A stretch of DNA of 57,383 nucleotides, taken from positions 1,178,001 to 1,235,383 of the forward strand of contig JANJGN010000150.1 in assembly GCA_026770705.1 (NCBI GenBank). Direction: 5' to 3'. The notes under the pieces were generated by a model. The model had not been told where the DNA came from. It worked only from the letters and a program-made list of their open reading frames with translations, and searched no databases. Below are positions 2,615 to 41,676 of this stretch, piece by piece (the first letter of the stretch is position 1; each line of letters begins with the position of its first letter). This stretch comes from Isurus oxyrinchus (Eukaryota). A program made the translations under genes and the position numbers.

Positions 2615-2731
2615 AAGAAAGATGAGAAGGTTCTGGAAATGAAATCTAACCGCGGAGTCAATCCTGATACAGATGATGATCTTTACGCAAACTGTGAATT
2701 TGCTGAGGATTCTGTTTATGGGAATTTATAA
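2615..2731 (+). CDS. Terminal coding exon of an upstream receptor gene; cytoplasmic tail KKDEKVLEMKSNRGVNPDTDDDLYANCEFAEDSVYGNL* with an ITIM-like motif
   Basis: Pyrimidine tract tttctgtttctattacAG at 2597-2614, 38 open codons in phase 0, TAA at 2729-2731. SVYGNL fits S/I/V/L-x-Y-x-x-I/V/L and a second Tyr lies in DLYANC. Unique AT-rich UTR-like sequence follows. Confidence 0.65.
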   Translation, partial: KKDEKVLEMKSNRGVNPDTDDDLYANCEFAEDSVYGNL

Positions 2732-4555: not shown

Positions 4556-5216
4556 CAGCCTTGGCACCAAAGGGGTTACCAGTTTGCTTACGGTGCAAGA
4601 CAAAGTGTTGGTTTCTCACATTCACACCAACCACCTCACATTTTGATTCACAGTGACACATCAACCCTTTCTAATTAAATACACAGAGGGAGCAGCACAG
4701 GAAGAGGTCATTCAGCCCAAGCAGAGCGTGTGGGCAGTTCCTCCACAGGCGAGCAGTCGGTCCTGGGTAAGTAACAGAACGATTGGAATTCACTTCCACA
4801 ACCAACACCGTCCTTTGTTGATGTTGTGACTTTATAAAGTCAGATTCCAATGCTTGATGGCTTTGAAAGATTTCTACTGATTATTGAGATCTGGGTGTGA
4901 GGCTCAAGTTTGTTGTACAGAACATCTTTCTAGCTCAAGGGATGAGGTAAGTGCAGAGACACGAGCTTTGGGACATCCTGAGGTGGTGAAAGGCGCAATG
5001 GAAATGCAAGTCCTTCATTGTTTTTCTTTCTTAAAGCCTTGTGACACTCTGCAGAGCACCTATCATCCCACAGAGAATCAAATTAGTCTGTGAAGACATT
5101 GTCTAAAAGCAGTTCCGATCTCTCGACAGCTGTCGGACAAGAGGTGAGGTCTCATTAACTCCTTTCTCTTTCACAGCTTGAGAGTGAGAAGTGGATGGAA
5201 TATCTGGGAGTGGACA

Positions 5217-5256
5217 ATGATCGGGAAATCTTACTTCCTCCTGTCACTTCTCCAAG
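5217..5256 (+). CDS. Siglec-like gene, leader exon coding part (MIGKSYFLLSLLQ)
   Basis: Acceptor ctctttcacAG ends at 5176, ATG at 5217 in an ACAATGA context, hydrophobic stretch, phase-1 donor CAAG|GTAATA. Joins the V exon to give ...LLQVGLS/QEWK. Confidence 0.75.
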
Positions 5257-8086: not shown

Positions 8087-8455
8087 TTGGACTGTCACAA
8101 GAGTGGAAGGGTGACACGCCACAAGAGGTGATAGCGCAGGAAGGTTCGTGTGTACAGATTCCATGTCATTACAGTTATCTATCAGAGTTGGAAAACCAAC
8201 TGCGAGCTAGAGTCTGGTTTAATAATGAGAAACAGATTCCCTGGGCTCCCATAGCCTTTCACTCCAAGGATCACAGTCACGAGTTACCACGGTTCCGGCA
8301 TCAGCCCCGGCTGTCTGGAGACCTGAAAGATGGCGACTGTTCCCTGATTATAACCAACATCAGACGGGAAGATGCAGGACCTTATTTTTTCAGAATAGAA
8401 TTTGACATCAGGAACAGTTACAGCTACTATCCTGTAACCCAGCTTCACGTTTCTG
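8087..8455 (+). CDS. Siglec/MAG-like V-set Ig domain exon, copy 1
   Basis: ctctccccAG acceptor, G|GTAAG donor, 369 nt, phase 1-1. GSCVQIPC, W, LSGDLKDGDCSL and DAGPYFFRIE give the Siglec Cys pattern (B-E disulfide, no F-strand Cys) and the essential Arg. Confidence 0.9.
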
Positions 8456-9250: not shown

Positions 9251-9619
9251 TTGGACTGTCACAAGAGTGGAAAGGTGACACTCCACGAGAGGTGACAGCG
9301 CAGGAAGGTTCGTGTGTACAGATTCCATGTCATTACAGTTATCCATCGTGTCTGGAAAACCAACCGCGAGGTGCAGTCTGGTTTAATAATGAGAAACAGA
9401 TTCCCTGGGCTCCCATTGCCTTTCACTCGAAGGATCACAGTCACGAGTTACCACGGTTCCGCCATCGGACCCGGCTGTCTGGAGACCTGAAAGATGGCGA
9501 CTGTTCCCTGATTATAAACAACATCAGACGGGAAGATGCAGGACCTTATTTTTTCAGAATAGAATTTGACAATGGTTCGAGCTATAACTATTATCCTGTA
9601 ACCCAGCTTCACTTTTCTG
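9251..9619 (+). CDS. Siglec/MAG-like V-set Ig domain exon, copy 2
   Basis: Same length (369 nt) and phase as copy 1, intact AG/GT, about 91% identical by hand count (32 nt differences), YFFRIE retained. Confidence 0.9.
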
Positions 9620-10321: not shown

Positions 10322-10677
10322 ATTTCACAGATAAACCCACGATATTCCCTGCTGAAATTATTGCAGGAAAGCATGTGGATGTAAGCTGCACCTTCAACAC
10401 AACGTGCAATGGAACAGCAGCACCTGTCTTAACCTGGGACACTCCCACTGACGTACCTGGATCAGTCTCAAACACTGTAACTCAGCATGGTGTCACTCTG
10501 ACCTATACTTCTGTTCTGACCCTGACCCCATCACTCAAACACCACGGACACACTCTCAGCTGCAGAGTGAGATATCCATCTGTTTCATCGGAGCGTACCC
10601 TCGTACTAACTGTGCAACAGAAGTACAGACATCCTTCATTCTACATTAGCGACAGTCCGGTACTCCCCCGGTACTGA
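10322..10677 (+). CDS. Siglec-like C2-set Ig domain exon, read through to a stop codon
   Basis: ctctgtctgttAG acceptor, phase 1. DFTDKPTIFP...VSCTFNTTCNGTAAPVLTW...TSVLTLTPSLKHHGHTLSCRVRY...LVLTVQ, with the extra Cys typical of Siglec domain 2. The expected donor after 10618 reads C|AGAAGT; TGA at 10675-10677. Confidence 0.8.
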
Positions 10678-11114
10678 TCTCTAACAATGCAGCACTCCCT
10701 CAGTACTGATCTCCAACAATGCAGCGCTCCCCAGATACCGATCTCCAACAGTGCAGCACTCCCTCAGTACTGATCTCCGACAGTGCAGCACTCCCCCAGT
10801 ACTGATGTCCAACAGTCCAGCACTCCCCCAGTACTGATCTCCGACAGTGCAGCACTCCCCCAGTACTGATCTCCGACAGTGCAGCACTCCCTCAGTACTG
10901 ACCCTCTGACAGTGCAGCACTCCCTCAGTAGTGATCTCCGACAGTGCAGCACTCCCTCAGTACTGACCCTCTGACAGTGCAGCACTCCCCCAGTACTGAT
11001 CTCCGACAGTGCAGCACTCCCTCAGTACTGACCCTCCAACAGTGCAGCACTCCCCCAGTACTGAGCCTCTGACAGTGCAGCACTCCCTCAGTCATAATCC
11101 TCCGACAGTGCAGA
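10657..11114. repeat. 33-bp minisatellite (ACAGTGCAGCACTCCCTCAGTACTGACCCTCCG)
   Basis: Tandem repeat; source of the TVQHSLSTDPP and STEGVLHCRRV ORFs. Confidence 0.95.
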
Positions 11115-11127
11115 GTTCCTTCTGGGA

Positions 11128-12215
11128 AAGGCAGTGGTGTAGTCGCTGGATGAGTAATCCAGAGTCCTGGGGTAATCTGCTGGGGACCTTGGTTCAAATC
11201 CCATCACGGCAAATGGTGAAATTTGAATTCAATAAAAAAAAACCTGCTGATAACTACTGTCCTAAAAACCTCTCTAGTTTCACTAATGCCCTTTAAAGAA
11301 GGAAATCTGCTGTCCTTACCTGGTTTGGCCTGCATGCGACACCGGGCCCACAGCGATGTGGTTGACACTGAACTCGCCCTCCGAAATGGCTGAGCAAGCC
11401 GCTCAGTTGTGTTACAAAGGAATGAAACCAGATGGACCACCCAATGTCAACCAAGGCACTGGAAACGAAAACGGCAATCTCAACCCTGTCGACCCTGCAA
11501 AGCCCTCCTTACTAGTCCTCCTCACTAACTTCGATGGGAGAGCTAGTCAAGCAACAGCCTGACATAGTCATCCTTACAGGTAATGTCCCAGGCACCACCA
11601 TCACCATCCCTGGGTATGTCTTGTCCCACTGCCCAGCAGAGGTGGCAGCAGAGGGAGTTGCCCTGGGAGCCCTCCTCATCAACTCCAGATCCCAGGAAGT
11701 CTCATGCCATCAGGTTACACATGGGCAAGGAAACCTCCTGCTGATTACCACGTACCGGCCTCCCTCAGCTCATGAACCCGTGCTCCTCCATGTTGATCAG
11801 CGTTTGGAGGAAGCACTGAGGGTGGTAAAGGTGCAGAATCTACTTTAGGTGGGGGGATTCAATGCCCATCACCAAGAGTGGCTCCTTGGCGCCTCTGAGG
11901 ATCCAAAGAGATTCCTTAGACAATGGGGATCCAACAGCATCTTCCTAAATCGCGACCTCTACCACCTAGAAGGACAAGGGCAGCAGACACATGGGAACAC
12001 CACCACCTGGAAGTTTCCCTTCAAGTCACTCACCATCCTGACTTGGAAATATATCACCGTTCCTTCACTGTCGCTGGGTCAAAATCCTGGAACTCCCTCC
12101 CTAACAGCACTGTGGGTGTACCTACACTACAGGGACTGCAGCGGGTCAAGAAGGCAGCTCACCACCCCCTTCTCAAGGGCAATTATGGAACAATAAATGC
12201 TGGCCCAGCAAGCGA
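11128..12215 (+). mobile_element. SINE-like head plus internally deleted LINE of a second family (APE endonuclease remnant and 3' end)
   Basis: tRNA-like boxes (gtggtgtagtcgctgg, ggttcaaatccc), then QQPDIVILT...IPGY...TTYRPPS...GGFNAHHQEW. The 3' segment matches 34470-34770. Confidence 0.75.
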
Positions 12216-12440: not shown

Positions 12441-14452
12441 TCAGTATGAGAGTAGCCCTCCTTCAGTACTGCCCCTCCGACAGTGCAGCACTCCCTCAGT
12501 ACTGACCCTCCGACAGTGCAGCACTCCCTCAGTATTGACCCGCCGACAGTGCAGCACTCCCTCAGTACTGACCCTCCGACAGTGCAGCACTCCCTCAGTA
12601 CTAACCCTCCGACAGTGCAGCACTCCCTCAGTATTGACCCTCCGACAGTGCATCACTCCCTCAGTACTGACCCTCCGGACAGTGCAGCAATCCCTCAGTA
12701 GTGACCCTCCGACAGTGCAGCACTCCCTCAGTACTGACCCTCCCGATAGTGCAGCACTCCCTCAGTACTGACCTTACGACAGTGCAGCACTCCCTCAGTA
12801 CTGACCCTCCGACAGTGCATCACTCCCTCAGTACTGACCCTCCGGACAGTGCAGCAATCCCTCTGTACTGATCCTCTGACAGTGCATCACTACCTCAGTA
12901 CTGACCCTCCGGACAGTGCAGCAATCCCTCTGTACTGATCCTCTGACAGTGCAGCACTCCCTCAGTACTGACCCTCCCGATAGTGCAGCACTCCCTCAGT
13001 ACTGACCTTACGACAGTGCAGCACTCCCTCAGTACTGACCCTCCGACAGTGCATCACTCCCTCAGTACTGACCCTCCGGACAGTGCAGCAATCCCTCTGT
13101 ACTGATCCTCTGTCAGTGCAGCACTCCCTCAGTACTGACCCTCCTGATAGTGCAGCACTCCCTCAGTATTGACCTTCCGACAGTGCAGCACTCCCTCAGT
13201 ACTGACCGACAGTGCAGCTCACCCTCAGTACTGTCCCTCCGACAGTGCAGCACTCCCTCAGTACTGACCCTCCGACAGTGCAGCTCTCCCTCAGTACTGA
13301 TCCTCCGACAGTGCAGCACTCCCTCAGTACTGACCTTCTGACAGTGCAGCTCTCCCTCAGTACTGACCCTCCGACAGTGCAGCACTCCCTCAGTACTGAC
13401 CCTCCAACAGTGCAGCACTCCTTCAGCACTGACCCTGACAGTGCAGCACTCTTTCAGCACTGACCCTCCGACAGTGCAGCACTCCCTCAGAACTGACCCT
13501 CGACAGTGCAGAGCTCCCTCAGTACTGACCTTCTGACAGTGCAGCACTCCCTCAGTACTGACCCTCCGACAGTGCAGCACACTCTCATTACTCACCCTCT
13601 GACAGTGCAGCACTCCCTCAGTACTGACCTTCTGACAGTGCAGCACTCCCTCAGTACTGACCTTCTGACAGTACAGCACTTCCTCAGTACTGACCCTCTG
13701 ACAGTGCAGCACTCCCTCACTACTGACCCTCTGACAGTGCAGCACTCCCTCAGTACTGACCTTCTGACAGTGCAGCACTCCCTCAGTACTGACCCTCCGA
13801 CAGTGCAGCACTCCCTCAGTACTGACCCTCTGACAGTGCAGCACTCCCTCCGTCCTGACCTTCTGACAGTGCAGCACTCCCTCAGTACTGACCCTCTAAC
13901 AGTGCAGCACTCCCTCAGTACTGACCTTCTGACAGTGCAGCATTCCCTCAGTACTGACCCTCCGACAGTGCAGCACTCCCTCAGTACTGACCCTCTGACA
14001 GTGCAGCACTCCCTCCGTACTGACCCTCTGACAGTGCAGCACTCCCTCAGTACTGACCCTCTAACAGTGCAGCACTCCCTCAGTACTGACCTTCTGACAG
14101 TGCAGCACTCCCTCAGTACTGACCCTCTGACAGTGCAGCACTCCCTCAGTACTGACCTTCTGACAGTGCAGCACCCCCTCAGTACTGACCTTCCGAAAGT
14201 GCAGCACTCCCTCAGTACTGACCCTCTGACAGTGCAGCACTCCCTCAGTACTGACCCTCTGACAGTGCAGCACTCCCTCAGTACTGACCCTCTGACAGTG
14301 CAGCACTCCCTCAGTACTGACCTTCTGACAGTGCAGCACTCCCTCAGTACTGACCCTCCGACAGTGCAGCTCTCCCTCAGTACTGACCCTCCGACAGTGC
14401 AGCTCTCCCTCAGTACTGACCTTCTGATAGTGCAGCACTCCCTCAGTACGGA
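12441..14452. repeat. 33-bp minisatellite array, about 60 copies
   Basis: Same unit as 10657-11114. Confidence 0.95.
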
Positions 14453-16420: not shown

Positions 16421-16520
16421 CGCCAGTCGCTATTGTCGATAACGAAATCCCTTAGTGAGCCGTGGTGAAACACAAATAGGTCTGGATGAGGGGGCGGCTG
16501 AAGGAAACATTCGTACCATC

Positions 16521-16526
16521 TTTATT
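16521..16526 (-). terminator. Candidate polyadenylation signal of the PP2A scaffold gene
   Basis: TTTATT on + (AATAAA on -) at the end of the unique segment 16500-16957. Confidence 0.55.
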
Positions 16527-16592
16527 AGGCAACAATCTGCAACTTGCTCTGCATCAACCAACAGGGCAGGAAACAAAAAAAGAACCAACCTT

Positions 16593-16957
16593 TCAAAACA
16601 CAACGTTGCAACCGGAGAGGTAAAGAACGAGGGAGTGCGAGCGAGGGAGGGAGAGGAACAAGTAGGACCTAAGGGGTGGGGGGTTGGGTGGGGGCGGGGA
16701 AAGGAGAACGAGGCAGCGGTTTCGGTGAAGTGGGAAAAGGCCGTCACCGAGGCGGCTGCAGACGTCCAGCTTCGGGCCGAGGGGTCGAGTCGCTCCGGCC
16801 GTTCGTTTACTCCTCGGGACGTGCACATCAGCATTGGGGGGGGGGGGGGGGTGGGAGGAGTCGCTGCCGTTCACGTGGGGCGTTCTGTTGCCCACGGTCG
16901 GGACCTGCGACGTCTCACTCAGCATGGCTCCGCTCTGTCTTAATTCAGGCAACAGCA
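16593..16957 (-). CDS. PPP2R1A: Probable terminal exon of the PP2A scaffold gene; spliced from exon 14 it gives VLLPELRQ..., a 121-aa tail
   Basis: (CT)n tract plus TAG acceptor at 16958-16985 on -. A phase-1 join restores V-L as in the canonical last exon. TGA at 16593-16595 and AATAAA about 70 nt further on. Coding extent uncertain. Confidence 0.45.
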
Positions 16958-17928
16958 CTAGAGAGAGAGAGAGAGAGAGAGAGGGAAGCGGGGTGAGGGA
17001 AAGGACAGATTAAAGATCGGGGAGAGCAGGCATTGCCCCCCCCGTGGAGGAAACCTGCTCGGCGCAGGGGTACAAAGCATCAAAGGCAATGGGGCAGGCT
17101 ATTCAGCCCATCAGGTCCATGCCGGCGTTCATTCCCCACTCGAACATCGCCCCCATTCAACTCTAACAGCCTAGGCCTGGGTTTCCTTTCTACCCCGTGT
17201 GTTTATCCAGCTTCCCCCTTTAATGTATCTGTTCTCTTTCCATGCACCCACCCACCATGGTCCCTCATGCCAGCCATCACCCCTGCCACCCCATTCAAGT
17301 TAAGGCACCTTCCTACCCATTCACCCACCGTGCACTGTGCATAGAACCAATGCAACCTATAGTGACAGTAGGATGTGTAAAAAAAAAAAAGGCTTTTATA
17401 AAAAATCGTTCGTTGATAACATTTCACTTGCTACAAAAAAAACTCATTTTTCCTACAGGACAATAAAAGTGCCAATCATCAAGGACCCTTCAAAGTATCA
17501 ATAGCTGAAACAGCAAGCACTTGAAACCTCTTAACCTTGTGCAAATAAACATTGCGAAATTGACAACAGGGGGTCAGAGATCCAGAGCTGTCACCATCAA
17601 ACAATGTTTTTCCTGGGGTTTAGGTACGTCAGTGCTCTAATGGATCTGTGGGCTCCAAACCAAGCCTCATTACGTACCCTTGGCTGAGAGGTCGGGCAAT
17701 CCAATAGAGTTCTTTCTCCCTCCCCACTCTCTGGGTAACGAGGTTTCTCCTGATTTCCCCTTTGGATTTATTAGCGACTATCTGATATTGAGGGCCCTTG
17801 GTTCTGGTCTCGTCCTCACAAGTGAAACATTTTTCTATCACGTCTGCCATACCGAAATCTCTCTATAGGTTTTGACGACCTGGATCAGGTTGTAGCTCTG
17901 TACCATTTCGGTGGTAGCTTCTTTCTGT

Positions 17929-18008
17929 TTACTCAGGTCCCCATTTCTCGGGCTTCTCAAGTTCCTGGAGCCTAGCTGGCTCCTTCTGAAGGTGATGGGT
18001 GGCAAGTT
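17929..18008 (-). CDS. Candidate alternative last coding exon (ELATHHLQKEPARLQELEKPEKWGPE*)
   Basis: C-rich tract plus cctgtccAG acceptor on -, open phase-1 frame to TAA, possible donor ATG|GTACAG at 17904/17903. No homology support. Confidence 0.3.
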
Positions 18009-18374
18009 CTGGACAGGGGAGGGAGGGGGGGGGCGGGTGGGAGGGGGTGGTGCGGAAGGAGCATCAGTCGTGTGGGAGTTGATCACACTGGACTCCCGGC
18101 CCATGCCTCAACCCAGCGACCCGGCGCGATACGTTGGTCGAGAGAGCGGGTTGATGTCGGGCATTTTCTAAGCACGAACGCAGGAAGGAAGGGGACTGGG
18201 GTCTGGGTCACCCCTCGAGTAACGTGCGCACCCACTCCCAGGGAGGGAAAGCGAGAGGACATCCGATTGCTTCCCCAACCCTCCCCCCCACCCCCTCCCC
18301 CTCCCGGGACCACCACTGATACCCCCTGTCACCGTTTTCCACCGTCTGGGAAATCTGAACCGCTCGCCACTCAC

Positions 18375-18466
18375 CAATTAAAGCTTCCTGGGCAAAGTAT
18401 TTGACGTCCATGTCTTGGTCCCGGCTCAGTTTGTCGAGTACGGGCTTAATCTCGTTATTCAAGGGG
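18375..18466 (-). CDS. PPP2R1A: PP2A scaffold subunit A, exon 14 (PLNNEIKPVLDKLSRDQDMDVKYFAQEALI)
   Basis: 92 nt, AG/GTGAGT flanks; matches the PR65/A C-terminal HEAT repeat. Confidence 0.95.
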
Positions 18467-18644
18467 CTGCAGGGAAACAGGAAGCGAGGGAGGAAACAGT
18501 TAATCAGACTGAAAACAGGGAAAACACCCCAGGCTCTCGCTGACACTGTTCGTTGTCCACAATCTGCACGCCCCCGCAAACCGACTGTTCCCTCAGAGGT
18601 CACACGGGAGCTGGTGTGTCTAACCCGGTAAAACGCCAGCAGGA

Positions 18645-18780
18645 TTCTAATGAAGAGTCCTGCCGGAGCCGGGACACTAACTCTGATCCCCTCCCCACAG
18701 ACGCTGCCCGGCCTGCTGAGTCTTTCCAGCGTCTTCTGCGTTTATTTTCAGATGTTCCAGCGTCCGCGGTGTTCTGCCGC
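18645..18780 (+). mobile_element. Decayed Penelope-type pseudo-LTR remnant
   Basis: aactctgatcccctccccacagacgctgcccggcctgctgagtctttccagc resembles 7555-7605; the hammerhead core is degenerate (ctaatga, no GAAA). Confidence 0.55.
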
Positions 18781-18789
18781 CCGCTAAAC

Positions 18790-19456
18790 GCGGGATTGCG
18801 TTTCTGCAGCGGCTTTTCCGCACCTCAGGGCGTTCCAAAGCGTTTCCACGGCCAATGAAGATTTTCGTTTTTGGGAGTGCGGGTCACTGTGGTCATGTAG
18901 GCCACCCAGCAGTCAATTTGCGCGCCGCAAGATCCCACAAACAGCAATGTAATAATGACCCCTATCATCTACTTTTTTTAGTGATGTTGGTTGAGGGGTA
19001 AATATTGGCCCCAGCACACTGGGGAGACCTTCCCCCATTCTGCTTCCAAATAGTGGCTTTCGGATTGTTTTACACCCATCTGAGAGGGCAGATTAATGTC
19101 TCATTTGAAAGGCGGGTCATCAGCAGTGTAGCGCTCCCCTCAGCACTGACCCTCCGACACTGCAGCACTCCCCTCAGTACTGACCCTCCGACAGTGCAGC
19201 ACTCCGTCAACACTGACCCTCCGACAGTGCAGCACTCCCTCAGTACTGACCCTCTGACAGGGCAGCACTCCCTCAGTACTGACCCTCTGACAGTGCAGCA
19301 CTCCCTCAACACTGACCCTCCGACAGTGCAGCACCATCTCAGCACTGACCCTCCGACAGTGCAGCACTCCCTCAGCACTGACCCTCCGACAGTGCAGCAC
19401 TCCCTCAGCACTGACCCTCCGACAGGGCAGCACTCCCTCAGCAGTGACCCTTCGAC
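18790..19456 (-). mobile_element. Deu-domain SINE whose internal segment is expanded as the 33-bp array (19124-19456)
   Basis: SINE body (gatcccacaaacagcaatg...gggtaaatattggccccag...gagagggcaga...tctcatttgaaag) runs directly into the tandem units. Confidence 0.8.
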
Positions 19457-19739
19457 GTGCAACGTGGGGGGTTGGTGCTGTTAAGCATCTCAGGCTCCTC
19501 CCAGCTGAGATGATAGCGACCTTGCTCTGTATTATCAGGGAGCAGAGCTGAGGAAGCTTCATGATGGTGGGGGGGGGGAAATTGGAGCTGGTGCGAGCTC
19601 AGGCATGGGGGGGCAGCAAAGATTGGGACCTGCTGAGGTGGAAGAAGGGCAGAAGACAGGTGGCCGGTGTGGTGTGGGGGAGGGGGGGGGGGGGTAGTGG
19701 GTGGGGGGGGCGGCTGTTTTGGGATTTAAATCCAAGTAA

Positions 19740-20335
19740 TAAAATCTGGAATGGAGGGGCGAGTCTCAGTGGGGGTGGACCGTGACAACCACGGCCGACG
19801 GTCCGTGAAAAACCCAGCTGGTTCACACCCACGTCCCCTTTAGGGAGGGGAAGCCTGCCGTCCCGTACCCTGGGCCTGGCCGACACGTGGCTCCCGGCCG
19901 ACAGCAGCGTGGCTGACTCTTAGCTGCCCCTCTGGATGGGCTGAGCAGGCCATCGCCCAGTCCGAGGGCCAGTCAGGGACGGGGCAACAAGCCCCGGCCT
20001 CGCCAGCTGCGCCCGCATCCCGCGGAATAACGAAACGAGCGAAAGGAAAAACGCCAGGACATCGGGGGAGCCGGTGTCAATTTTTCCTGATTGATTTGTT
20101 CTGTCAGGGGGACGTGGGGCGCCGTCGCCCATCCCCAACTGCCCTCAGACTGGCCACTTCGGGAGGGGTCTGAAGTCGCCCGTCGGGCAGATTTCCCTCC
20201 CCGGAGGGAGGTCAGTGGTGACCCAGGCGGGTTTCCATGGCAAGCGGCGGGCAATGGTTTCGGGGGTCTCAATTCCAGACTTACCAGCCGAATTTAAATT
20301 CCACCAGCCGCCGCGGTGGGATTTTAACCCATTTC
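19740..20335. mobile_element. Two decayed SINE fragments in opposite orientation (family of 11128 and 26050)
   Basis: aaacccagctggttcac...tttagggaggggaagcctgccgtcc on +, and a reverse copy ggcagatttccctccc...aatttaaattccaccagc. Confidence 0.5.
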
Positions 20336-21030
20336 AGCCTGATTCGCCCGGGTTACGCACCCAGCGACGCTCCCTCTACACCACCATCTCCCCCCTCCCA
20401 TCCCCCCACCGCCTCTGCCCTCCCCCCCACCCCACCCCCCCACTACAGCTACCCCTTATTTATCGTTCCTAACATGTCGCCGAGAAACAGCGTGGCTTAA
20501 TGAAGGGGGAGAGTTGGGGGGGGGGGGCGGTGGTCACTCAAAAGGAGGAATTCAATAGGAAGGAGCTGTCAATTCATGGCAGCCTCGAGGACTCTAAGAC
20601 CCTCCTTTTCAACTCGTCCTGTTATCTGAAGCAGTCCCGGGATTGCTTATTGACAACCCCTTCACCAGCCGCTCAAAAGAACTCTTGCCGGGTTTCAAGG
20701 GGCCTTTTGGTTTTTTCCTTTTAAAAACCAGAAAGGAAAAATTTTGCCCTTGCCTGCCCCCTTGGCCAGATTTGAACGGTTGGAGTTGAGGGAGATTGGT
20801 CTCTGGCCCTGAAATCACTCCGGTTTTCACTTCAGTAAACTGATATGAAGTCGCCCATCTTCAACTTGAGGAGGAGCCCAGCAACCCGAACAGGAAGACA
20901 CCGAGTCATTGGCTGGTGCGTCCTCCATGGCAACGCGTCTGCCAATCAGAGGCCACCTGCCAATCAATCGGCACTCTCTTCTCAGGCGGTGTAAATTGTT
21001 GTTCGCTTTGAGGTTGGGTATTCTCGCGGT

Positions 21031-21071
21031 TTCTGCCCTGATGATGTTCAAGACGAAAAGCTTTGATGGAA
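21031..21071 (+). ncRNA. Minimal hammerhead-ribozyme motif in a probable solo Penelope-type terminal repeat (~20880-21085)
   Basis: CUGAUGA (21038-44), U-GUU-caa-GAC, GAAA (21055-58), palindromic AAAGCUUU; stem I is weak. Three CCAAT/ATTGG boxes lie 70-130 nt upstream. Confidence 0.55.
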
Positions 21072-21582
21072 TGTCCCCTCTCGTCAACAATACTGGAGTC
21101 CCGTACCACCCAAATGACTACTTGTACGCTAAATGGTAACGTGGATTCGGCTCCGGTGTCCAGGCTTGTGGACGAGCGAGTCTTTTTCACGCGGCGCCTG
21201 TTTGGGATCTGGAACGCACTGCCTCAGGGGTTGTGGGGGAGGCAGATTCAATGGTGGCTTTCGGAGAGGGAATTGGGTGATTGTACCCAAAATGGAAAAG
21301 CGTTGGGGGAGGGGCTACGGGGGGGGAAGAAGTGGGGAGGGCGGATTGCTGAGAGGGCCAGCACAGGCACGCGGGGCCAAATGGCCTCCGCCTGTTCTGC
21401 CAACCGTACCTATCTATGCCTGTGACTGAACACGTGTAGTCACCAACACAGTAACCGCGCTAAAGTGATAACGGAGGGCCGCTTTACCCGGTGAACACGT
21501 TATCGGGGGGTGGGGGAGGGGGGGGGGGGGGAGGAGAAGCGGGAATGTCTGTCCCGGTGCCGGTTAGCAGCAGCCCACTTGC

Positions 21583-21725
21583 CTGTAGTCCAGGACAGGC
21601 CCGATCCTCTGCAGCGTCTTGGCCACGTTGAAACGCACGTTCGCCACCGGGTCACTCCCCATCCGCAGGACGGTGGGCAGCATGATTTTGGTGGTGATGT
21701 CCTTTCCACACACGTCGTACAGAAC
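21583..21725 (-). CDS. PPP2R1A: PP2A scaffold subunit A, exon 13 ([47 protein letters not shown])
   Basis: 143 nt, conserved [12 protein letters not shown], acceptor ctccAG, donor AG|GCAAGT (GC type). Confidence 0.95.
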
Positions 21726-21727
21726 CT

Positions 21728-22585
21728 GGAGGGGAGGGAGGACGGAGGATGGTGTGGGTGGGGGAGGGAGGGGAGGGGGTGGTGGTGTGGTGGGGGGGAT
21801 GGGAGGAGTGGGCGAGGGGAGGGGTGGGGTGTGGGGGTGGGGGGGAGGGGAGGGGTGATGGGGTGGGGGGAGGGGAGGGATGAGGAGGGGGAGGGGTGGG
21901 AAGGTGTGGGGGAGGGGAGGTGTGGGGGAGGGGAGGTGTGGGGGAGGGGAGGGGTGGGGTGTGGGGGTGGGGGGGAGGGGAGGGATGGGGAGGGGAGGGG
22001 TGGGAAGGTGTGGGGGAGGGGAGGTGTGGGGGAGGGGGAGGGGTGGGGTGTGGGGGTGGGGGGAGGGGAGGGATGGGGAGGGGAGGGGTGGGAAGGTGTG
22101 GGGGAGGGGAGGTGTGGGGGAGGGGAGGTGTGGGGGGAGGGGAGGGGGTGGGGTGTGGGGGTGGGGGGGAGGGGAGGGATGGGGAGGGGAGGGGTGGGAA
22201 GGTGTGGGGGAGGGGAGGTGTGGGGGAAGGGAGGTGTGGGGGGGAGGGGAGGGGTGGGGTGTGGGGGTGGGGGGAGGGGAGGGGATGGGGAGGGGAGGGG
22301 TGGGAAGGTGTGGGGGAGGGGAGGTGTGGGGAAGGGGAGGGGTGAGGGTGGGTGGGGTGTGGGTGGGGAAGGGGTGAGGGTGTGGGGGGTGAGTGGGTGG
22401 GGGGAGGGGTGAGGGTGTGGGGGCAGGGGTGAGTGTGAGGGTGTGGGGGTGGGTGGGGTGAGGGTGTGGGGGTGGGTGGGGTGAGGGTGTGGGGGGGTGG
22501 GTGGGGGCGGGGTGAGGGTGTAGGGGGTGAGTGGGTGGGGGAGGGGGGAGGGGGGGCGTGGGGGTGCGGACAGGGGGGAGGGAGG
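21728..22585. repeat. G-rich low-complexity tandem tract abutting the exon 13 acceptor
   Basis: Runs of GGGG separated by A/T with repeated ggaaggtgtgggggaggggaggtgtg units. Confidence 0.9.
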
Positions 22586-23177
22586 AGAATTAGAGCTACA
22601 CAGGAAAGAGATCCCGCGCTGGTTCGGGACATCGCCGAGCGCTTCCTCCAGCTGTGACCTCAGAAACACGGCCCAGCCAGATCCCAGAAACAGCAGCGGA
22701 TTTCCACTGACACCCCTGTTCCCCTCACAATAACCCTCCCTGCTGGGAGGCGTGGGGTCTTTAACCCCCCCAGCCCTGGGTGGTGGGGGTGCGGCGGAAC
22801 ACAGAATTAATTACCTCTGAAAGACGGCACCTCCGCTCTTAGGAATTGGCGACAAAATAAAAAAAATCCGAGGGTAAATCTCAAATGGAGGTGAAGGATC
22901 CCGCAGCCACGATTTGGAACAAGAACATTGTGCGGAGTTTGGGCGGAGGGGTTTTGCTCAGAATCCTGGGACTAATATTTTATGCCTCAAACTACGTCGC
23001 TGTAAAGATCCGGTTCATTGTCAGGTTGCCGTTTCTGGGATCTTGCTGTGCGCAATTCGGCTGCCGCGTTTCCGACATGACAACAGTGACCTCGCTTCAA
23101 GGCACCGGCAGCATTTTGGGACAACGAGAGGATGTTTTACTCTGCATTGCCGGCCTGGATCGCCGGGTCACAGCTTG

Positions 23178-24705
23178 AGGGGAGGAGAGAAAAGACAAAG
23201 ACACAGAGAGAGAGAGAGAGACATGGAGAGGGACAGGAAGAGACAAAGAATCAGAGAGAGAGAGACAGACGGAGAAACAGAGGGGGAGACAGTGGTGGGG
23301 AGATAGAGAGAGAGAGGCAGAGAGATAGAGAGAGTGAGAGAGAGTGAGAGGCGGGGAGGGGGAGATGGGCAGGAGGAGAGGGGCAGAGGGAGGGGGGGGG
23401 TAGGGAGAGAGGGGGAGGGAGTGAGGGGGAGGGAGTGAGGGGGNNNNNNNNNNNNNNNNNNNNNNNNNNNNNNNNNNNNNNNNNNNNNNNNNNNNNNNNN
23501 NNNNNNNNNNNNNNNNNNNNNNNNNNNNNNNNNNNNNNNNNNNNNNNNNNNNNNNNNNNNNNNNNNNNNNNNNNNNNNNNNNNNNNNNNNNNNNNNNNNN
23601 NNNNNNNNNNNNNNNNNNNNNNNNNNNNNNNNNNNNNNNNNNNNNNNNNNNNNNNNNNNGACAGCGAGAGAGAGGGACAGCGAGAGAGAGGGGACAGCGA
23701 GAGAGAGGGACAGCGAGAGAGAGAGAGAGACAGCGAGAGGGACAGCGAGAGAGAGAGAGAGAGACAGCGAGAGGGACAGCGAGAGAGAGGGACAGCGAGA
23801 GAGAGGGACAGCGAGAGAGAGAGAGAGAGACAGAGAGAGAGAGAGACAGCGAGAGAGAGACAGCGAGAGAGAGAGACAGCGAGAGAGAGAGACAGCGAGA
23901 GAGAGGGACAGCGAGAGAGAGGGACAGCGAGAGAGAGAGAGAGACAGAGAGAGAGAGAGAGAAACAGCGAGAGGGACAGCGAGAGAGAGAGAGAGGGACA
24001 GCGAGAGAGAGGGACAGCGAGAGAGAGGGACAGCGAGAAAGAGAGAGAGAGAGACAGAGAGACAGAGAGAGAGAGACAGCGAGAGAGAGAGAGAGACAGC
24101 GAGAGTGAGAGAGAGAGCAAGAGTGCGAGTGAGTGTGAGAGAGATGGAGAGAGAGCGGGGCAGAGACAGAGGGACAAGGAGAGAGAGAGAGAGGGACAGG
24201 GAGAGAGAGAGAGACAGGGAGAGAGAGGGACTGAGAGAGAGAGACAGGGAGAGAGAGAGTGGGAGACAGAGGGAGACGGAGNNNNNNNNNNNNNNNNNNN
24301 NNNNNNNNNNNNNNNNNNNNNNNNNNNNNNNNNNNNNNNNNNNNNNNNNNNNNNNNNNNNNNNNNNNNNNNNNNNNNNNNNNNNNNNNNNNNNNNNNNNN
24401 NNNNNNNNNNNNNNNNNGGATAAGCAGAGAGAGAGATACAGAGGCAGAGAGAGAGATAGAGACAAAGGGAGATACAAGAGCAGACAGGCAGAGGCAGAGA
24501 GAGGGAGATATAGAGACAGACAGAGAGAGAGAGAGAAAGATAGGGACAGAGAGGCAGGCAGTGAAAGACAGAGAGCAATAGAGGCAGAGAGAGAGGTACA
24601 GGGACAGAGACAGACAGTGGGAGAGACAAGAGAATGGGAGAGAAAAGGGAGTGAGAAAGGGAGACAGAGAGATGGAGACAGAGATGGACAGAGAGAGAGA
24701 GACAC
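23178..24705. repeat. (GA)n-rich microsatellite region with N gaps (23444-23659, 24282-24417; next gap 24706-24892)
   Basis: GAGA and GACAGC repeats, N runs. Confidence 0.9.
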
Positions 24706-24959
24706 NNNNNNNNNNNNNNNNNNNNNNNNNNNNNNNNNNNNNNNNNNNNNNNNNNNNNNNNNNNNNNNNNNNNNNNNNNNNNNNNNNNNNNNNNNNNNNN
24801 NNNNNNNNNNNNNNNNNNNNNNNNNNNNNNNNNNNNNNNNNNNNNNNNNNNNNNNNNNNNNNNNNNNNNNNNNNNNNNNNNNNNNNNNNNNNGATGGGGA
24901 GACAGTGTTAAACCATTAAACCATGGCTCCCTCTAGTGGTTGCAAGTAGGATGCTGGAC

Positions 24960-25630
24960 TTTTTAAAATTCATTCACAAGATGAGTGTCTTTGGCAAGGC
25001 CAACAGTTGTTGCCCATCCCTAATTGCCCTTGAGAAGGTGCTGATGAGCTGCCTCCTTCAACTGCTGTACCCCATGTGGTGTAGGTACACCTACAGTGCT
25101 CTTAGAGAGGGAGTTCCAGGATTCTGACCCAGCGACAGTGAATATTTCCAAGTCAGGATGGTGAGTGACTTGGAGGGGAACTTCCAGGTGGTGGTGTTCC
25201 CATGTGTCTGCTGCCCTTGTCCTTCTAGATGGTAGAGGTCGTGGGTTTGGAAGGTGCTGTCGAAGGAGCCTTGCTGAGTTGCTGCAGTGCATCTTGTAGA
25301 TGGTACACACACTGCTGCCGCTGTGCGTCGGTGGGGGAGAGGCTGAATGTTTGTGGATGGGGTGCCAATCAAGCGGGGCTGCTTTGTCCTGGTTGGTTTC
25401 AAGCCTCTTGAGTGTTGTGGGAGCTGCACTCATCCAGGCAAGTGGAGAGTATTCCATCACACTCCTGACCTGTGCCTTGTAGATAGTGGACAGACATTGG
25501 GGGTGGGGAAGTCAGGAGATGAGTTCCTCTGTGCAGGGTTCTTGGACTCTGACCTGCTCTTGCAGCCACAGTAATGCAAAGGCTAGTTCAGTCCAGCTTC
25601 TGGTCAACGGTGAGCCACCAGGACGTTGAC
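24960..25630 (-). mobile_element. LINE 3' fragment of the second family
   Basis: Minus ORF MMEYSPLAWMSAAPTTLKRL matches the copy at 33690-34780. Confidence 0.85.
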
Positions 25631-26049
25631 GGTTTTGGAAGGATATATTTGCAGTGACAGGCCGTTTCTTTCACTTCCTGCCTAGTACCCACAAGGTTCT
25701 GGAACGCTCCCGGCAGATTGGGGGGTTAGAAAATGTAACCGCGCTGTTCAAGAGTGGAAGGAGAGATAAAACAGTGTGGCCTAACATCAGCTGCTGTGAA
25801 AAAAATAAGGCTGGGATCTGTTACTGAGGATGTGGTGAGAGGTCACAGAGATTCAGAACACGATTAGACAGAGTCAACTTGGTTTCTGAAAGGAAGCTGT
25901 GGTTGAGAAATCGGTTTGAGGATTTTGGAGAGTTATCTTTAACCAAGTCAATGAAAGGGTGAACTGGCGGATGTGGTCTCTCGATTTTCAGAAGTCATTC
26001 GAGCAGGTGCTACAGAGAAGTTTAAATGGGGCTCAGGGGATCGGGAGGA

Positions 26050-26530
26050 CAGTGGGAGCGCGGCAATGTCACTGGGCTAATGCTCTTGGGGGGGGGGGGG
26101 GGGGGGAGGGGGGCGTGGGTTCGAATCCCGCCAGGGCAGCTGGTGGGATTTAAACTCACTGAATAAAATCGGGAATTGAAACCCGGTCTCAGTGACGGTG
26201 ACCGCGAAACTGTCGTCGACTGCTGAAAAAAAAAACCCATCTGGGTCACTCATGTCTCCTTTAGGGGAGGGGAAAATCTGCCTCCCTTACCCGGTCTGGC
26301 CTACAACGTGGCTTCCCAGACCCCACGGAGATGTGGTTGACTCCTATCCGCCCCTCTGCAATGGCCGAGCGAGACCCCTCCTTTGTGCCGCACCATTATC
26401 GGGGGTGGGGGGGGGGGGGGGGGGGGTGCGTGGGTCACAGTGGTTGACCACCACCTTCTCAAGCCGCAATTAGGAACGGGACAATGAAAGCGCTGGCCCA
26501 GCCAGCGAGGCCCGGGTCCCGTAAACGAAT
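26050..26530 (+). mobile_element. tRNA-derived SINE, decayed
   Basis: B-box-like gggttcgaatccc; body aaacccatctgggtcactcatgtctcctttagggg...aaatctgcc; tail gctggcccagccagcga shared with the LINE 3' end. Confidence 0.65.
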
Positions 26531-26712
26531 GAGAGAAGATAAAGAAAAATGGCAGCGAGGCTTCCTTCGTCTTGTGCTCTTTGTGGGAGAGGTGTGGGGT
26601 GGGCTGTGGGTGGAGGGGGGGTCGGGGGGGGGTTAATGGAGCCCGCGGACGAGGGTGGTGGGAGATGGGGGAGGGGGGGGGGGCAACAGTCCAGCCTGTA
26701 GCAGAGACTTAC

Positions 26713-26867
26713 GTTGACACAGAAGAGAGTGGTCATCCTGTGCAGGTAGTTGGGGTTGCTGGACATGGCTAGAACCTTGGGAATGATGGTGTTCTGGGCC
26801 CAAACCTTGCCGAACTTCTGGGTGAGCTTCTTCAGGTTGTTAGTGGCGGCCTCGCGAATGGCATAGA
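26713..26867 (-). CDS. PPP2R1A: PP2A scaffold subunit A, exon 12 ([51 protein letters not shown])
   Basis: 155 nt, ttcAG/GTAAGT, conserved [11 protein letters not shown]. Confidence 0.95.
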
Positions 26868-27109
26868 CTGAAGGTGGAGCGGGGTTGGGGGGATGGGGTG
26901 GGGAGAGAGGGGGTGGAGAGGTCGGGGGGAGAAAAGGAAAGAGTCACAAACCAAACTGGAAAAATCTCCACCCAGCACCATTGCCTGGCAGCCCTGTACC
27001 ACTCTCGTCAGCACAGCCCCTCACCTAGCGACAGCCCTTCATAATATTCCTTAGTGACACCAGGCAAGGTAACTGAGTTCTAATGTTGCACTTAATCTCT
27101 AACACATCG

Positions 27110-30100
27110 GGTCCACAGCACAGAAACAGGCCATTCGGCCCATCTGCTCCGTGCTGGTGTTTCTGCTCCACACGAGCCTCCTCCCACCTCCTCTTCATCT
27201 CACCCCATCCCCATATCCCTTCTATTCCTCTCTCCCTCATGTGTTTATCCAGCTTTCCCCCTTAAATACATCCATACTATTCAACTCCACCACTCCCTGT
27301 GGGAGCGAGTTCCACATTCTCCCCACTCTCTGGGTAAAGAGGTTTCTCCTGAATTCCCCCATTGGATTTATTAGTGACGATCTTATATCGATGGCCCCTG
27401 GTTCAGGCCTTCCGCCCCCTCAAATGGAAACACCTTCCCTACGTCCACGCTATCAAAACGACCGCCCCCACCCTCCCCCTCCCCCTCCCCTCCCCACCGG
27501 CCACTTCCTCACTTTGATCAAGGAAGCGTTACGAGTGCAACTGGAAATACTTCCCCTCAGCTGCAGGGAGCTGGGGAGAGGTGAAGATCAGGCAGCTTAG
27601 ACAGGGTCGCAGTCTAAAAAGGTAAAGGGACAGCAAAAGACTGAACACAGGAGCATGTTGCGGCTTCTGATAAAACGGCGATTGGAGCAATTACTCTGCC
27701 AGGGACTGCAGTGCAATAAAATGCCGCGTGGAACACCTGGGTGCAGTTTTGGTCTCCTTACTTAAGCAAGGATATACTCGTATTGGAGGCGGCACAGTGG
27801 AGGCTCACTAAAATTGGTTCCTGGGGATAAGGGGGTTGTCCTGTGATGAGGGGCTGAGTAAATCGGGGTCTATACACTCTGGAGTTTAGAAGAACCTACA
27901 ATATTCTGAAGGGGCTCGAGAGGGTGGATGCGGAGAGATTGTTTCCGCTGGTCGGGAGGCTCAAACACACTGGGCGAGGCAGGGGGGGCACAGTCTCAGG
28001 ATAAGGGGCCGATCATTTAGGTCTGAGATGAGGAGGAATTTCTTCCCTCAAAGGGTGGTGAATCTTTGGAATTCTCTGCCCCCCCCCACCACCCCCCACC
28101 ACCCCACCGCAACCGAGGGTTGTGGATGCTCCTTCGTTGAACACGTTTAAGGCTGCGACAGGCAGAATTTCGGTCTCTGGGGGAATTAAGGGATATGGGG
28201 AGCGGGCGGGAAACTGGGGTTAAAGCCCAGGATCAACCATGATCGCACTGAATAGCGGAGCAGGCTTGACGGGTCCTATCCCTTGCGCTCTGGTATTTTG
28301 TGTCACATGCCATCGGCTCGGTGACGGGGATGCGATGAGAGGAGCTGGAATCAGTCCGTCCTCAGGAACCAGCCCGAGGACCTGGGGCAGCTATTACTGC
28401 TGGCCAGTCGTTGCCCCTCTGAGATCAGGCAAAACCCCGAGAAGCACTGAGAACCACCAGAAGGAGTGTGTAGAGCTTCAAGAGGACGTAGACAGGTTGG
28501 TGGAATGGGCGGACAGGTGGCAGGTGAAATTTAATGCAGAGGAGTGTGGACTGATTTATTTTGGTTCGAAGAACATTGGAGAGGCAGTATAAAATAAGGG
28601 TGCAACTCTAAAGGGGGTGCAGGAGTGGAGGGACCTGGGTGTATAGGTCACTGAAGGTGGCAGGACAGGTTGAGAGCGTAGTTAATAAAGCATACAGTAT
28701 CCTGGGCTTTATTATTAGTGGCACAGAGTACAAGAGCAGGGAGGTTATGTTAAACGTGTACAAAACACTGGTTCATCCTCAAGTGAAGTACTGCGTCCGG
28801 TTCTGAGCACCACACTTTAGAGGGATAATGAGAAGGCCTTAGAGAGAGAGAGAGTGCAGGAAAGATTCACGAGAATGGTTCCAGGGATGAGGGACTTAGG
28901 TTGAGAGATTGGAGAAGTTGGGACTGTTCTCCTTGCAGGTTCCAGCCCTTCAGATGCAGATCCCGGTACCTACCAAATGTGTTGAGCACTTCACCCTCAA
29001 TCACCAATTCGGCCATCAATCCAGATGCCCACCGCCCTCTCTCGGGGTGAAGAAGGTTTTTTTTTCATGTCCCCTCCAATCCTTCTACCAATCACCAAAT
29101 CTATGCCCCCCTGGGAACTGACCTCTCAACGAGGGGAAGCAAGTCTTTCCTGTCTAACGTATCTAGGCCCCTCATAATTCTGTACTCCTCAATTAGGTCA
29201 CTCCTCAGCCTCCTCTGTTCTAAGGAAAATATCCCCAGCCCAGCCAATCTTTACTCATAGTTGCAATTTTCAAGCCCCGGTAAATCTTGTAAATCTCCTC
29301 TGTACTCTCTACAGAGTAATGATGTCCTTCCTGTAATGTGGTGATCAGAACTGGACACAAAATTTCAGCTGTGTCCTAACCAGCGTTTTAAACGGTTCTA
29401 GCGTTACACCCCTGCTTTTGTATTCTATACTTTGCCCAATGAAGGAATTAGCTATGCTTATTGTATTTAATATTTCACACTCCTCCTCTTTAACTAGAAT
29501 GTCTGCATCCTTACTGAAGACAGAGACAAAGTACTCATTGAGAGCCCTGCCCACATCTTCTACATCAACCCACAAGTTATCATGTACATTTGATAGGGCC
29601 TACCCTTTCCTTAGCTATTTCCTTGCGCTTAATGTGCAAGTGTTTTGTGACTGTTATAAGCTTTCTTTTTATGCTTTACTCACCCTGTATGCATCTGGAT
29701 AACCAGGGGGCTCTAGATTTAGCAGCACCACCCTTTTACTTTGTGGGGAAATGTTTACACTGTGCCCGTAGAATCTCACTTTTGAGTGCCTGAGAGTGTG
29801 GTGGAAGCAGACTCAATCAAGGATTTCAAAAAGGAATTGGAGCATTATCTGAAGAGGCAAAATTTACAGGGTTACAGGGAGAAGGTGGGGGAGTGAGACT
29901 AGCTGAGAGCCAGCAGACACAAACGGGCCGACTGGTCTCTTTCTGTGCTGTGACCATGGCCTCGTTCAGTGCTGTAAGGTATGAGCGTACATTTGGCATA
30001 TAAAATAGGAGCAGAAGTAGGCCATTCGGCCCCTTGAGCCTGCTCTGCCATTCAATAAGATTATGGCTGATCTGTTTGCGTTTCGAATTCCCACATTCCT

Positions 30101-31025
30101 ATTCACACCCAATAACAGCCCTACCTGGAAGTTCCCCCACAAGCCACTCACCATCCTGACTTGGAAATATATCACCGTTCCTTCACTGTCGCTGGGTCAA
30201 AATCCTGCAGCTCCCTCCCTAACAGCGCGGTGGGTGTACCTACACCACAGGGACTGCAGCGGGTCAAGAAGGCAGCTCACCCCCACCTTCTCAAGGGGCA
30301 ATTAGGGATGGGCAATAAATGCTGGGCCCAGCCAGCGATGCACACATCGGGTAAATGATTTTTTTTTTTAAAAATTCCCTTGCCTAACAAAAATCTATCT
30401 ACTCCGCCTTAAACATATTCAGTGGCCCCCGCCTCCACCGCCTTCTGAGACAGAGAGTTCCAAAGTCGGACAACCCTTGAGAGAAAAATATTCTCCTCAA
30501 CTGTGTCCCATAAGGGCGACCCCTCATTTTAAACCGGTGCCCCCCCTAGTTCTGGACTCACACACAAGAGGAAACATCTTTTCCACATCCACCTTGTCAA
30601 GGCCGTTCAGGATCTCGTACACTTCAATCAGATCCCCCCCTCACTCATCTAAACTCTAGTGGAAACAAGCCCAGCCTGTCTAACCTACCCTCATTAGACA
30701 ACCCGCTCGTTCCAGGTGTCAATCTGGTAAACCTCCTCTGAACTGCTCCCAACGCGTCTACATCCTTCCTTAAATAAGGAGACCAAAACCGCGCACCGTA
30801 TTCGAGGCGCGGTCTCACCAATGTCCTGTATAACTGAAGCATAACATCCTTACTTTTATGTTCAATCCCTCTCGGAATAAAGGATGGGATTCCATTCGCC
30901 TTCCTGGTGACACGCTGAACCTGCAGACTAACTTTGTGTGACTCATGCACGAGAGCACCCAGATCCCTCTGCAGCTCGGAGTTGCGCAGCCATTCTCCGT
31001 TTAAGTAACACTCTGCTTTTACATT
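27110..31025. mobile_element. Cluster of decayed CR1 fragments in both orientations, plus a second-family LINE tail (30120-30360)
   Basis: ELQEDVDRLVEWADRWQVKFN (+), LVRTQLKFCVQF (-), LYRTLVRPRLEYGARFWSPYLRKD (-); several CR1 3' ends. Confidence 0.85.
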
Positions 31026-31192
31026 TTATGAACCATCGCCTCCTTCTGTGCTGTAACCATTCTATGATGTCAGGAGCCTGAGGCAAAAGCTCCCTCACAA
31101 GGTGGCTGCCTCTTAAATTAAACTGTACAACACTTATAGAAACGATGGTGACAATGGTATAGTAAGTGGATGACGCTGGTTCCCGTCCTTAC

Positions 31193-31253
31193 CGTGATCT
31201 ACCAGCCAGGCCATGCAGATCGCGTTTAACTTCTCATTGAAGAACTCAACACC
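31193..31253 (-). CDS. PPP2R1A: PP2A scaffold subunit A, exon 11 (GVEFFNEKLNAICMAWLVDH)
   Basis: 61 nt, cacAG/GTAAGG; translated by hand, absent from the ORF track. Confidence 0.95.
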
Positions 31254-31474
31254 CTGTGGAGGTAAAGGGACAGTTAAAGAGATGTCTAAAGTTGACACTT
31301 GTTCACTTCATGCAGCACACAGGTTAAATATCACACTGGCCACGTGTCACTAGCCTCCCAATCACACTGCCAGTCTCTAGCGGCCAAGAGATCCGAAGCC
31401 AAGGCACAGAAGCAGCTCCCTATGTTGCCGCAACAGCTATCCAAATGTCTTTATATATCCATCGGAATTCGAGG

Positions 31475-33090: not shown

Positions 33091-33689
33091 TCCCATTCAA
33101 TGTGATCATGGCTGATGTGCGACCTATCTCCATGCACCCACCTTTTACTCCTTATCCCTTAATACCTTTGCCTAACAAAAATCTATCAATCTCCCCAATA
33201 TAATATGAACAATTTGATCTGAGCATCAAATGCCATTTGGGGAAGAGAGTTCCAAACTTCTCCCAGCCTTTGTGTGTAGAAATGTTTCCTAATTTCACTT
33301 CCGAAAGGTCAGCCTCTTATTTTTAGACTGCCCCCTTGTCCCAGACTCCCCACAAACAACGGAAATAGTTTCTATCAACCTTTGTTCTCATTAATATCTT
33401 GGTTCAAATCACCCGTTAATCTTCTAAACTCAGAGGAGAACAACTTCCCTTTGAATTCCACTCACTGTTGTAATGTTGGGTAACACAGCAGCCAAATTAA
33501 AAAAGGGAACTAACTGAGATAACGGCGAGCTTTCTTCACTTGTGTTTTGGATGAGACATTGAACCAAGGCCCCCGTCTGCCCTCTCGGGCGGGTGTGAAA
33601 GATCCCACGGCCACTATTTGGAGGAAGAGCAGGGGGTGTTCTCCCCGGTGTCCTGGGGCCAATATTTAATCCCTCAAACAACATCACTG

Positions 33690-34780: not shown

Positions 34781-35004
34781 ATAGAAACAAAAAAAAAAAA
34801 ATCAGATGATCTGGGTCATAATCCCCTTGCTATTTTTGGGATCTTGCTGTGCACAAATTGGCTGCCATGTTTCTTACATTACAAAAGTGACCACATTTCA
34901 TAACAAGTCCTTCATTGGCTGTGAAACACTTTGGGACGTCCAGAGGTGGGGAAAGGAGCTAGAGAAATGCAAGCCTGTCTTTCTCACTTGACTAAATTAG
35001 GTCA

Positions 35005-35975
<971 letters not shown>

Positions 35976-37379: not shown

Positions 37380-37431
37380 CTGTTTGAAGCAGAACACAGC
37401 TCGGTGAGCACTCATCTGACGTTTTACACTG

Positions 37432-41670: not shown

Positions 41671-41676
41671 TGCTGC

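Follow-up and report, generated by a model that had tools for sequence, protein, structure and literature searches.

The CD33-related Siglecs and MAG (Siglec-4) place a V-set domain, with an arginine in the F strand and the Siglec cysteines, before a C2-set domain, and primate Siglec-12 has two V domains. Other fast-evolving clusters of Ig-type receptors contain anchorless or truncated members, such as LILRA3, the KIR2DS4 deletion allele and KIR3DP1, some of which are secreted and active and others pseudogenes. In human Siglec-14, the accessible text of two reports describes how read-through into the intron after the C2 exon adds a short tail and yields a soluble form (PMC8787094, PMC8615218). 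Bovine CEACAM32, as presented in the accessible text of PMC7042247, is a cluster member that partly escapes concerted evolution, its orthologues being traceable between species; conversion spares its Ig exons, which was read as selection, and a transmembrane (TM) segment is present.

Here we analyse a Siglec-like gene of Isurus oxyrinchus lying in a window of 57,383 nucleotides (assembly GCA_026770705.1, contig JANJGN010000150.1, positions 1,178,001 to 1,235,383, forward strand), which is the end of contig C150. Like the CD33-related Siglecs and MAG, the gene combines V-set domains carrying the F-strand arginine and the Siglec cysteines with a following C2-set domain, and like Siglec-12 it has two V domains; unlike the CD33-related Siglecs and MAG, it has neither TM nor cytoplasmic tail. 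As in soluble Siglec-14, its predicted terminal tail comes from reading into the intron past the C2 exon, but whereas that form is produced under regulation from an intact gene and has a demonstrated function, the change is here hard-wired, the anchor exons are gone, and the gene is known from its sequence. As a truncated copy in an Ig-receptor cluster it resembles LILRA3, the KIR2DS4 deletion allele and KIR3DP1, which belong to different families. As for CEACAM32, partial escape from concerted evolution lets a probable orthologue be traced; contrary to CEACAM32, it is the C2 exon that appears converted, while the first V domain drifts like an intron. Taken together, we regard the gene as most likely an old truncated relic on which selection is relaxed, and not as a working decoy, a reading to which we give a probability of roughly 0.6.

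Organization of the gene and of its predicted product

The anchorless gene has four coding exons on the + strand, in the order leader-V1-V2-C2, and apart from the C2 donor all its splice sites are GT/AG (a slash within donor sequences marks the exon-intron border):

4687..4766, + strand: exon-like element that precedes most leader exons of the family, a copy of the middle tail exon of the inhibitory genes; probably a 5' non-coding exon
5217..5256, + strand: leader (signal peptide) coding exon, MIGKSYFLLSLLQ; donor AAG/GTAATA
8087..8455, + strand: V1 exon, Siglec-type V-set with the arginine kept; P31L (8180), G41R (8209), R72Q (8303) and T73P (8305) at conserved sites
9251..9619, + strand: V2 exon, V-set with the arginine kept and the family-type extra cysteine; G41A on the window haplotype only
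10322..10618, + strand: C2-set exon, 99% identity to paralogues, no private change; likely gene-converted

The earlier note, which was made from the letters of this stretch, had described all exons as free of stops and had expected a transcript to encode an anchorless soluble protein. Both statements hold: the spliced frame of 377 amino acids has no internal stop on either haplotype (the two differ in it by 5 bases and 2 residues), and the predicted product has a signal peptide, a V-V-C2 ectodomain and a polar tail, with no anchor. A TM segment was found neither in the product, in which the highest 19-residue hydropathy is 0.8, nor as a TM exon of any family type downstream on the same strand.

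Pfam recognizes two V-set domains and one C2-set domain, with V-set and Ig_CD22 above the cut-offs and the C2 domain as PF08205 (E 3e-09). The best PDB matches of V1 are MAG, Siglec-5, sialoadhesin, Siglec-7, Siglec-8 and CD33, and the essential arginine is present; indeed, both V1 and V2 carry it in the F strand, where FFRIE aligns with YYFRG of MAG and YFFRV of Siglec-5. The cysteine pattern is also that of Siglecs, with C21, C26 and C84 in both V domains and three cysteines in C2, presumably forming the B-E pair in V and an extra pair from V to C2. Over the C2 domain the closest database proteins are white-shark and basking-shark models (92-98%). As judged from its exons, the gene is thus a truncated member of the Siglec family and not a Siglec receptor.

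The C2 donor and the read-through tail

10619..10624, + strand: dead donor AGAAGT (family: GTAAGT), following ...CTGTGCAAC, which ends at 10618
10618..10677, + strand: read-through tail of 19 codons plus TGA; the first 11 codons are former exon end and intron, the rest comes from the array

Where C/GTAAGT was expected the earlier note had read C/AGAAGT, and this is what both assembled haplotypes and a short-read contig carry. The family otherwise retains its donor. N/GTAAG is found at 28 of the 30 best-matching loci, the other two being the anchorless gene and its other haplotype (C121:1458121; among the matches listed, C121 is 99% identical over 28 kb and runs on into the same PP2A gene). Genome-wide, exact exon-end patterns returned 232 GT donors versus 3 first-base changes (the anchorless gene twice, and C71:1393418) and no second-base-only change, so that GT is kept at 232 of 235 such sites; of 25 C2 exons in three contiguous stretches, 24 have it. 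A comparison with paralogues and raw reads had been suggested at the outset, and the reads agree with the assembly: in run X1, which may not derive from the assembled individual, a 136-bp short-read contig of depth 17.5 spans 10573-10708 and has AG, not GT. Clearly, the donor change of the anchorless gene is real and rare, and is due neither to chance nor to error. The second C2 exon with a dead donor, L069 (G000:C71:1393418), reads G/CTAAGT and has a short intron deletion directly after it.

Long arrays and contig ends do lie nearby, and a GT occurs 4 nt downstream (10623), which would speak for an assembly error or for a cryptic donor that splices to a TM exon and yields a normal receptor. 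However, the AG is seen on both haplotypes and in short reads, the out-of-frame site at 10623 has a score of only -3.1, the two V donors scoring 6.7 and 3.5, and no family-type TM exon lies downstream on the same strand. Such an artefact or normal receptor is therefore largely refuted, and we regard it as very improbable.

The tail, QKYRHPSFYISDSPVLPRY, has 19 residues with a mean Kyte-Doolittle value of -1.0 and ends at a TGA (10675-10677) just inside a 32-33-bp array, in agreement with the approximately 19 hydrophilic residues up to a TGA at 10677, on the edge of a 33-bp array, that had been described. As a diagnostic peptide, which had also been proposed, the tail is useful in part: DSPVLPRY occurs in no other read-through examined, but KY(R/G/K)HPS starts are found also behind intact donors. 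In the presumed RNA run X15 a contig joins the end of a V exon to C2 and stops at 10602, which shows that the family is spliced. No RNA contig crosses the dead donor over 10616-10647 in X15 or X19, the two presumed-RNA runs available at contig level, which make a weak test.

Loss of the 3' exons

10650..11113, + strand: 32-33-bp tandem array; family homology ends here, likely breakpoint of the 3' loss
11231..11236, + strand: AATAAA with a genomic A-run behind it, in sequence also present elsewhere; candidate poly(A) signal
12192..12197, + strand: AATAAA within a common dispersed repeat
12454..14449, + strand: second 33-bp array, 60.5 copies
16500..57383, - strand: convergent PP2A A-subunit gene (alpha or beta), 3' limit approximate; closes the cluster on that side

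No further Ig or TM exon had been noticed before the convergent PP2A gene, and comparisons with proteins and paralogous regions confirm this. Comparison with 120 shark and ray proteins revealed no C2b, TM or tail exon beyond C2, and five paralogous downstream regions matched the sequence past 10650 in dispersed repeats only. All paralogue matches stop within 4 bases of 10650, the array start; together with the missing 3' exons, this indicates that the whole 3' half of the gene was lost, and not just the donor. It had been implied that the donor change alone made the product soluble, which is not so, as the downstream exons are gone and family homology ends at 10650. The AATAAA sites reported at 11231 and 12192 are at those positions, and more lie at 14619 and 17462. 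In human, PPP2R1A is close to the CD33-related SIGLEC cluster at 19q13.41; we found no paper on Siglec-PPP2R1A synteny in the literature covered.

The upstream neighbour and the cluster

2615..2731, + strand: last tail exon of the upstream CD22-like neighbour, with tyrosine motifs in phase 0; direct splicing from the phase-2 TM exon stops at 2642

The gene upstream (G000:C150:1148141-1180732) is CD22-like. Its V domain is 26% identical to V1 and has YYFYVD in place of the Siglec arginine motif, and the gene has 13 further Ig exons and a TM type of its own. The TM exon ends in phase 2, and splicing it directly to the last exon reads RKMRRFWK-stop (2616-2642), a short basic tail, putting DLYANC and SVYGNL out of frame. 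Inhibitory paralogues have a middle exon that alters the phase and so brings the tyrosine motifs of the last exon into frame; such a phase-shifting middle tail exon was not found in the upstream neighbour, and its white-shark and basking-shark models end with the same short tail. The earlier suggestion that an ITIM-bearing relative lies next door is thus doubtful, given that the tyrosine motifs are out of frame on direct splicing. A receptor/decoy pair with this gene fails as well, since the neighbour is of another subfamily, with a dissimilar V domain, no Siglec arginine and motifs out of frame. As to a ligand domain in common with a membrane receptor, V2, which keeps its arginine, is 97% identical to distant paralogues, whereas the neighbour's V domain reaches 26% and V1 is damaged.

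A CD33/MAG-like cluster comprising hundreds of copies ends with the anchorless gene, which lies next to the PP2A-A gene. Genome-wide there are 551 candidates for C2 and 835 for V1, of which the best 40 of each were scored; gene numbers are below these counts, as the assembly includes both haplotypes in places. The family occupies G000 contigs C52, C71, C121, C150, C189, C323, C385, C557, C646, C724 and C926, with near-identical V and C2 exons, and the V-V-C2 layout is common in the shark family. Its genes run on either to an arginine-bearing TM exon (activating) or, via more Ig exons, to a neutral TM and a tyrosine tail (inhibitory). Across contiguous sequence amounting to about 750 kb, activating and inhibitory genes are interspersed with V-less units and orphan leader exons; of 36 V exons sampled in the cluster, 4 carry a stop or frameshift.

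Several units of the cluster are unusual in other ways. At G000:C150:1002238-1051047, 25 tandem copies of a leader exon and upstream element precede one gene, by biology or by assembly artefact; at G000:C150:1054016-1085548, one inhibitory-type gene has V, C2 and 24 more C2-type exon matches ahead of the TM exon; and at G000:C150:944519-964890 one gene has six tandem V exons, one with a stop. Two leader-V-C2 units with intact donors (G000:C52:2721340-2724455 and G000:C150:969448-971734) have no TM exon before the next leader; they could either read through or be spliced to the following gene. We found no study of shark Siglec clusters in the literature covered, most subscription journals being outside it; the accessible text of PMC8455134 mentions Siglecs just in a list.

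Age of the lesion and the basking-shark relative

The nearest genome match of V1, among the best 40 of 835 candidates, is 94% identical, and the DIRNS segment of V1 is confined to the two haplotypes of the anchorless gene. Counted against 21-80 distinct sampled paralogues, private changes amount to 1.9% upstream, 0.9% in the first intron, 1.8% in the intron before V1, 2.2% in V1 and 2.7% in the intron before V2, while the paralogue means over the same segments are 0.5-0.9%.

The basking-shark protein XP_078389741.1, annotated as a coding gene, has an open leader-V-V-C2 frame that ends W-K-stop, and no TM. Its V1 is the best full-length database match to V1 (87%), and the two have in common A40 and I107, each present in 2 of 167 shark and ray V domains. 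In a careful tree of 26 rows (the 16 genome V exons nearest in sequence, both V domains of the window and 8 database domains) they are sisters, with a moderate, unstarred support of 85/84; in a quick-mode tree of 102 rows the pair has a support of 88. In the latter no grouping is seen between the second V domains of the two genes, which also start differently. XP_078389741.1 shares its scaffold with the orthologue of the upstream neighbour; RefSeq accession order was rejected as evidence of adjacency, since on that scaffold it tracks protein length. The basking-shark V1 has one conserved-site change, the conserved-site changes of this candidate being F105S and L95P. Among 168 C2 domains, 7 end soon with no TM: four, from other shark or skate models, begin C-K, which is what read-through of an intact T/GTAAG gives, one is partial, one is unrelated and one, XP_078389741.1, is the sole case starting W-K, which T/GGAAG would give. 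XP_078389741.1 is therefore probably the orthologue of the anchorless gene. No white-shark protein with the same V1 was found among 91 matches.

These comparisons speak against the recent truncation proposed in the earlier note: the 5' half is about 2% from all sampled paralogues, and an anchor is likewise missing from the probable orthologue, which belongs to another shark family (the accessible text of PMC11886822 provides the family placement and no date). The lesion thus appears older than had been supposed. A young, lineage-specific truncation would make the basking-shark model an unrelated broken copy whose V1 likeness arose by conversion or convergence. The moderate tree support, the ungrouped second V domains with their differing starts, and the fact that W-K-stop is known from a protein model and could be a tiny separate exon, are all compatible with this. 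Nevertheless we consider it improbable, as the nearest V1 match in the genome is as distant as 94%, DIRNS is private to the two haplotypes, and the only W-K tail among the 168 C2 domains belongs to a protein with a sister V1. Furthermore, at the mutation rate of 7e-10 per base per generation given for the epaulette shark in the accessible text of PMC10587355, about 2% private change implies long isolation.

Damage, selection and probable gene conversion

In a set of 167 shark and ray V domains, 33 positions are conserved in at least 93% of the members; V1 departs from the family at 4 of these, where P31, G41, R72 and T73 are kept in 161, 158, 165 and 165 domains, respectively. In 36 V exons from three unselected contiguous stretches the number of such changes is 0 (21 exons), 1 (11) or 2 (4), and four or more occur in 3 of the 167 database domains. 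MAG has P, G and R at the positions aligned with P31, G41 and R72, and R72 corresponds to the arginine of the D strand, which normally forms a pair with the aspartate that precedes the F strand. On the second haplotype V2 shows no damage, G41A segregating. AlphaFold was set aside as evidence of V1 damage: V1 has a pLDDT of 62.8 and the V2 control is lower at 48.4, both too poor.

A distinct scenario is seen at the 3' end, where C2 and the 232-bp intron before it have no private change in 529 bp. That exon and intron are equally clean fits conversion better than selection at the protein level, and C2 is likely gene-converted. Purifying selection on the ectodomain was not seen in V1, which changes at a rate like that of the introns, in small counts no slower than these, and at conserved sites; in V2 and C2 probable conversion would obscure it. 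The private changes of the gene comprise 11 non-synonymous and 4 synonymous, a ratio that we discarded as a discriminator because open paralogues have the same, about 80% non-synonymous (118 versus 30). Indels aside, V frames stay open with a probability of 0.51-0.64 after 15 or 10 random substitutions; absence of stops is thus expected by chance about half the time, and open frames do not by themselves speak for function.

A probable relic or a possible secreted lectin

The lesion of the gene, its missing exons, its position in the cluster and the damage to V1 are observed. In the relic that we favour, a rearrangement ending at the 33-bp array (10650) would have removed the anchor exons, and the donor would have died once, from GT to GG, before the basking-shark lineage split. 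From an ancestral C/GG, one CpG transition per lineage would give TGG (Trp) in the basking-shark model and CAG (Gln) in the anchorless gene. The 5' half would have drifted since, exon and intron at one rate, while conversion from near-identical paralogues would keep the C2 end clean; with homology stopping 31 bp past the donor, the AG would be sheltered from repair. A transcript, if made, would terminate at one of the repeat-derived AATAAA sites (11231, 12192 or 14619) and escape junction-dependent decay. It is an established mechanism that a message with no junction after its stop does so.

The number of conserved-site changes in V1 (4 of 33, versus 0-2 in 36 neighbouring V exons) and a cluster full of debris support the relic. 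A pseudogene had rightly been offered as the alternative; relative to the paralogues, the dead donor and the loss of all 3' exons are disabling. Against it stand the intact frames and other splice sites on both haplotypes, the nearly clean V2 and C2, which are by themselves a minimal Siglec unit, and the survival of the AG although both flanks look homogenised. In addition, XP_078389741.1 is open and lightly damaged, so the heavy V1 damage would be specific to the lineage of the anchorless gene.

As a less probable reading, the gene could be dedicated to a secreted Siglec and have become fixed before the lineages of basking and mackerel sharks diverged. It would use the family promoter and a repeat-derived poly(A) signal, and would compete for sialylated ligands, mainly via V2, with the activating (Arg-TM) and inhibitory receptors of the family, and not with the neighbour, V1 being a relaxed spacer or skipped. 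The basking-shark protein fits this, with its like layout, W-K-stop, sister V1 (85/84, A40 and I107) and scaffold holding the neighbour's orthologue; so does V2, 97% identical to membrane-bound paralogues with its arginine kept. The four models with C-K tails suggest that soluble isoforms may be normal in the family, and human soluble Siglec-14, formed by intron retention, dampens inflammation according to the accessible text of PMC8787094. However, V1 has four conserved-site changes within a neutral-like 5' half, a second G41 change segregates in V2, the tails differ (2 residues in the basking shark versus 19), no white-shark orthologue is among the 91 matches, and the two RNA runs have no contig at 10616-10647, contigs showing presence and not absence. 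More tentatively still, one may picture in lamniform sharks a hard-wired secreted V-V-C2 lectin, fixed by one donor mutation before the basking-shark split, that buffers the activating and inhibitory receptors of the cluster, gene structure doing what intron retention does for human Siglec-14.

If the gene is a relic, it is an ordinary product of birth and death, in which slow mutation and gene conversion can keep frames open in the absence of function. If the secreted reading is true, the locus would be a Siglec gene dedicated to secretion, of which we know no example in mammals. The probable orthologue in the basking shark makes the question directly testable.
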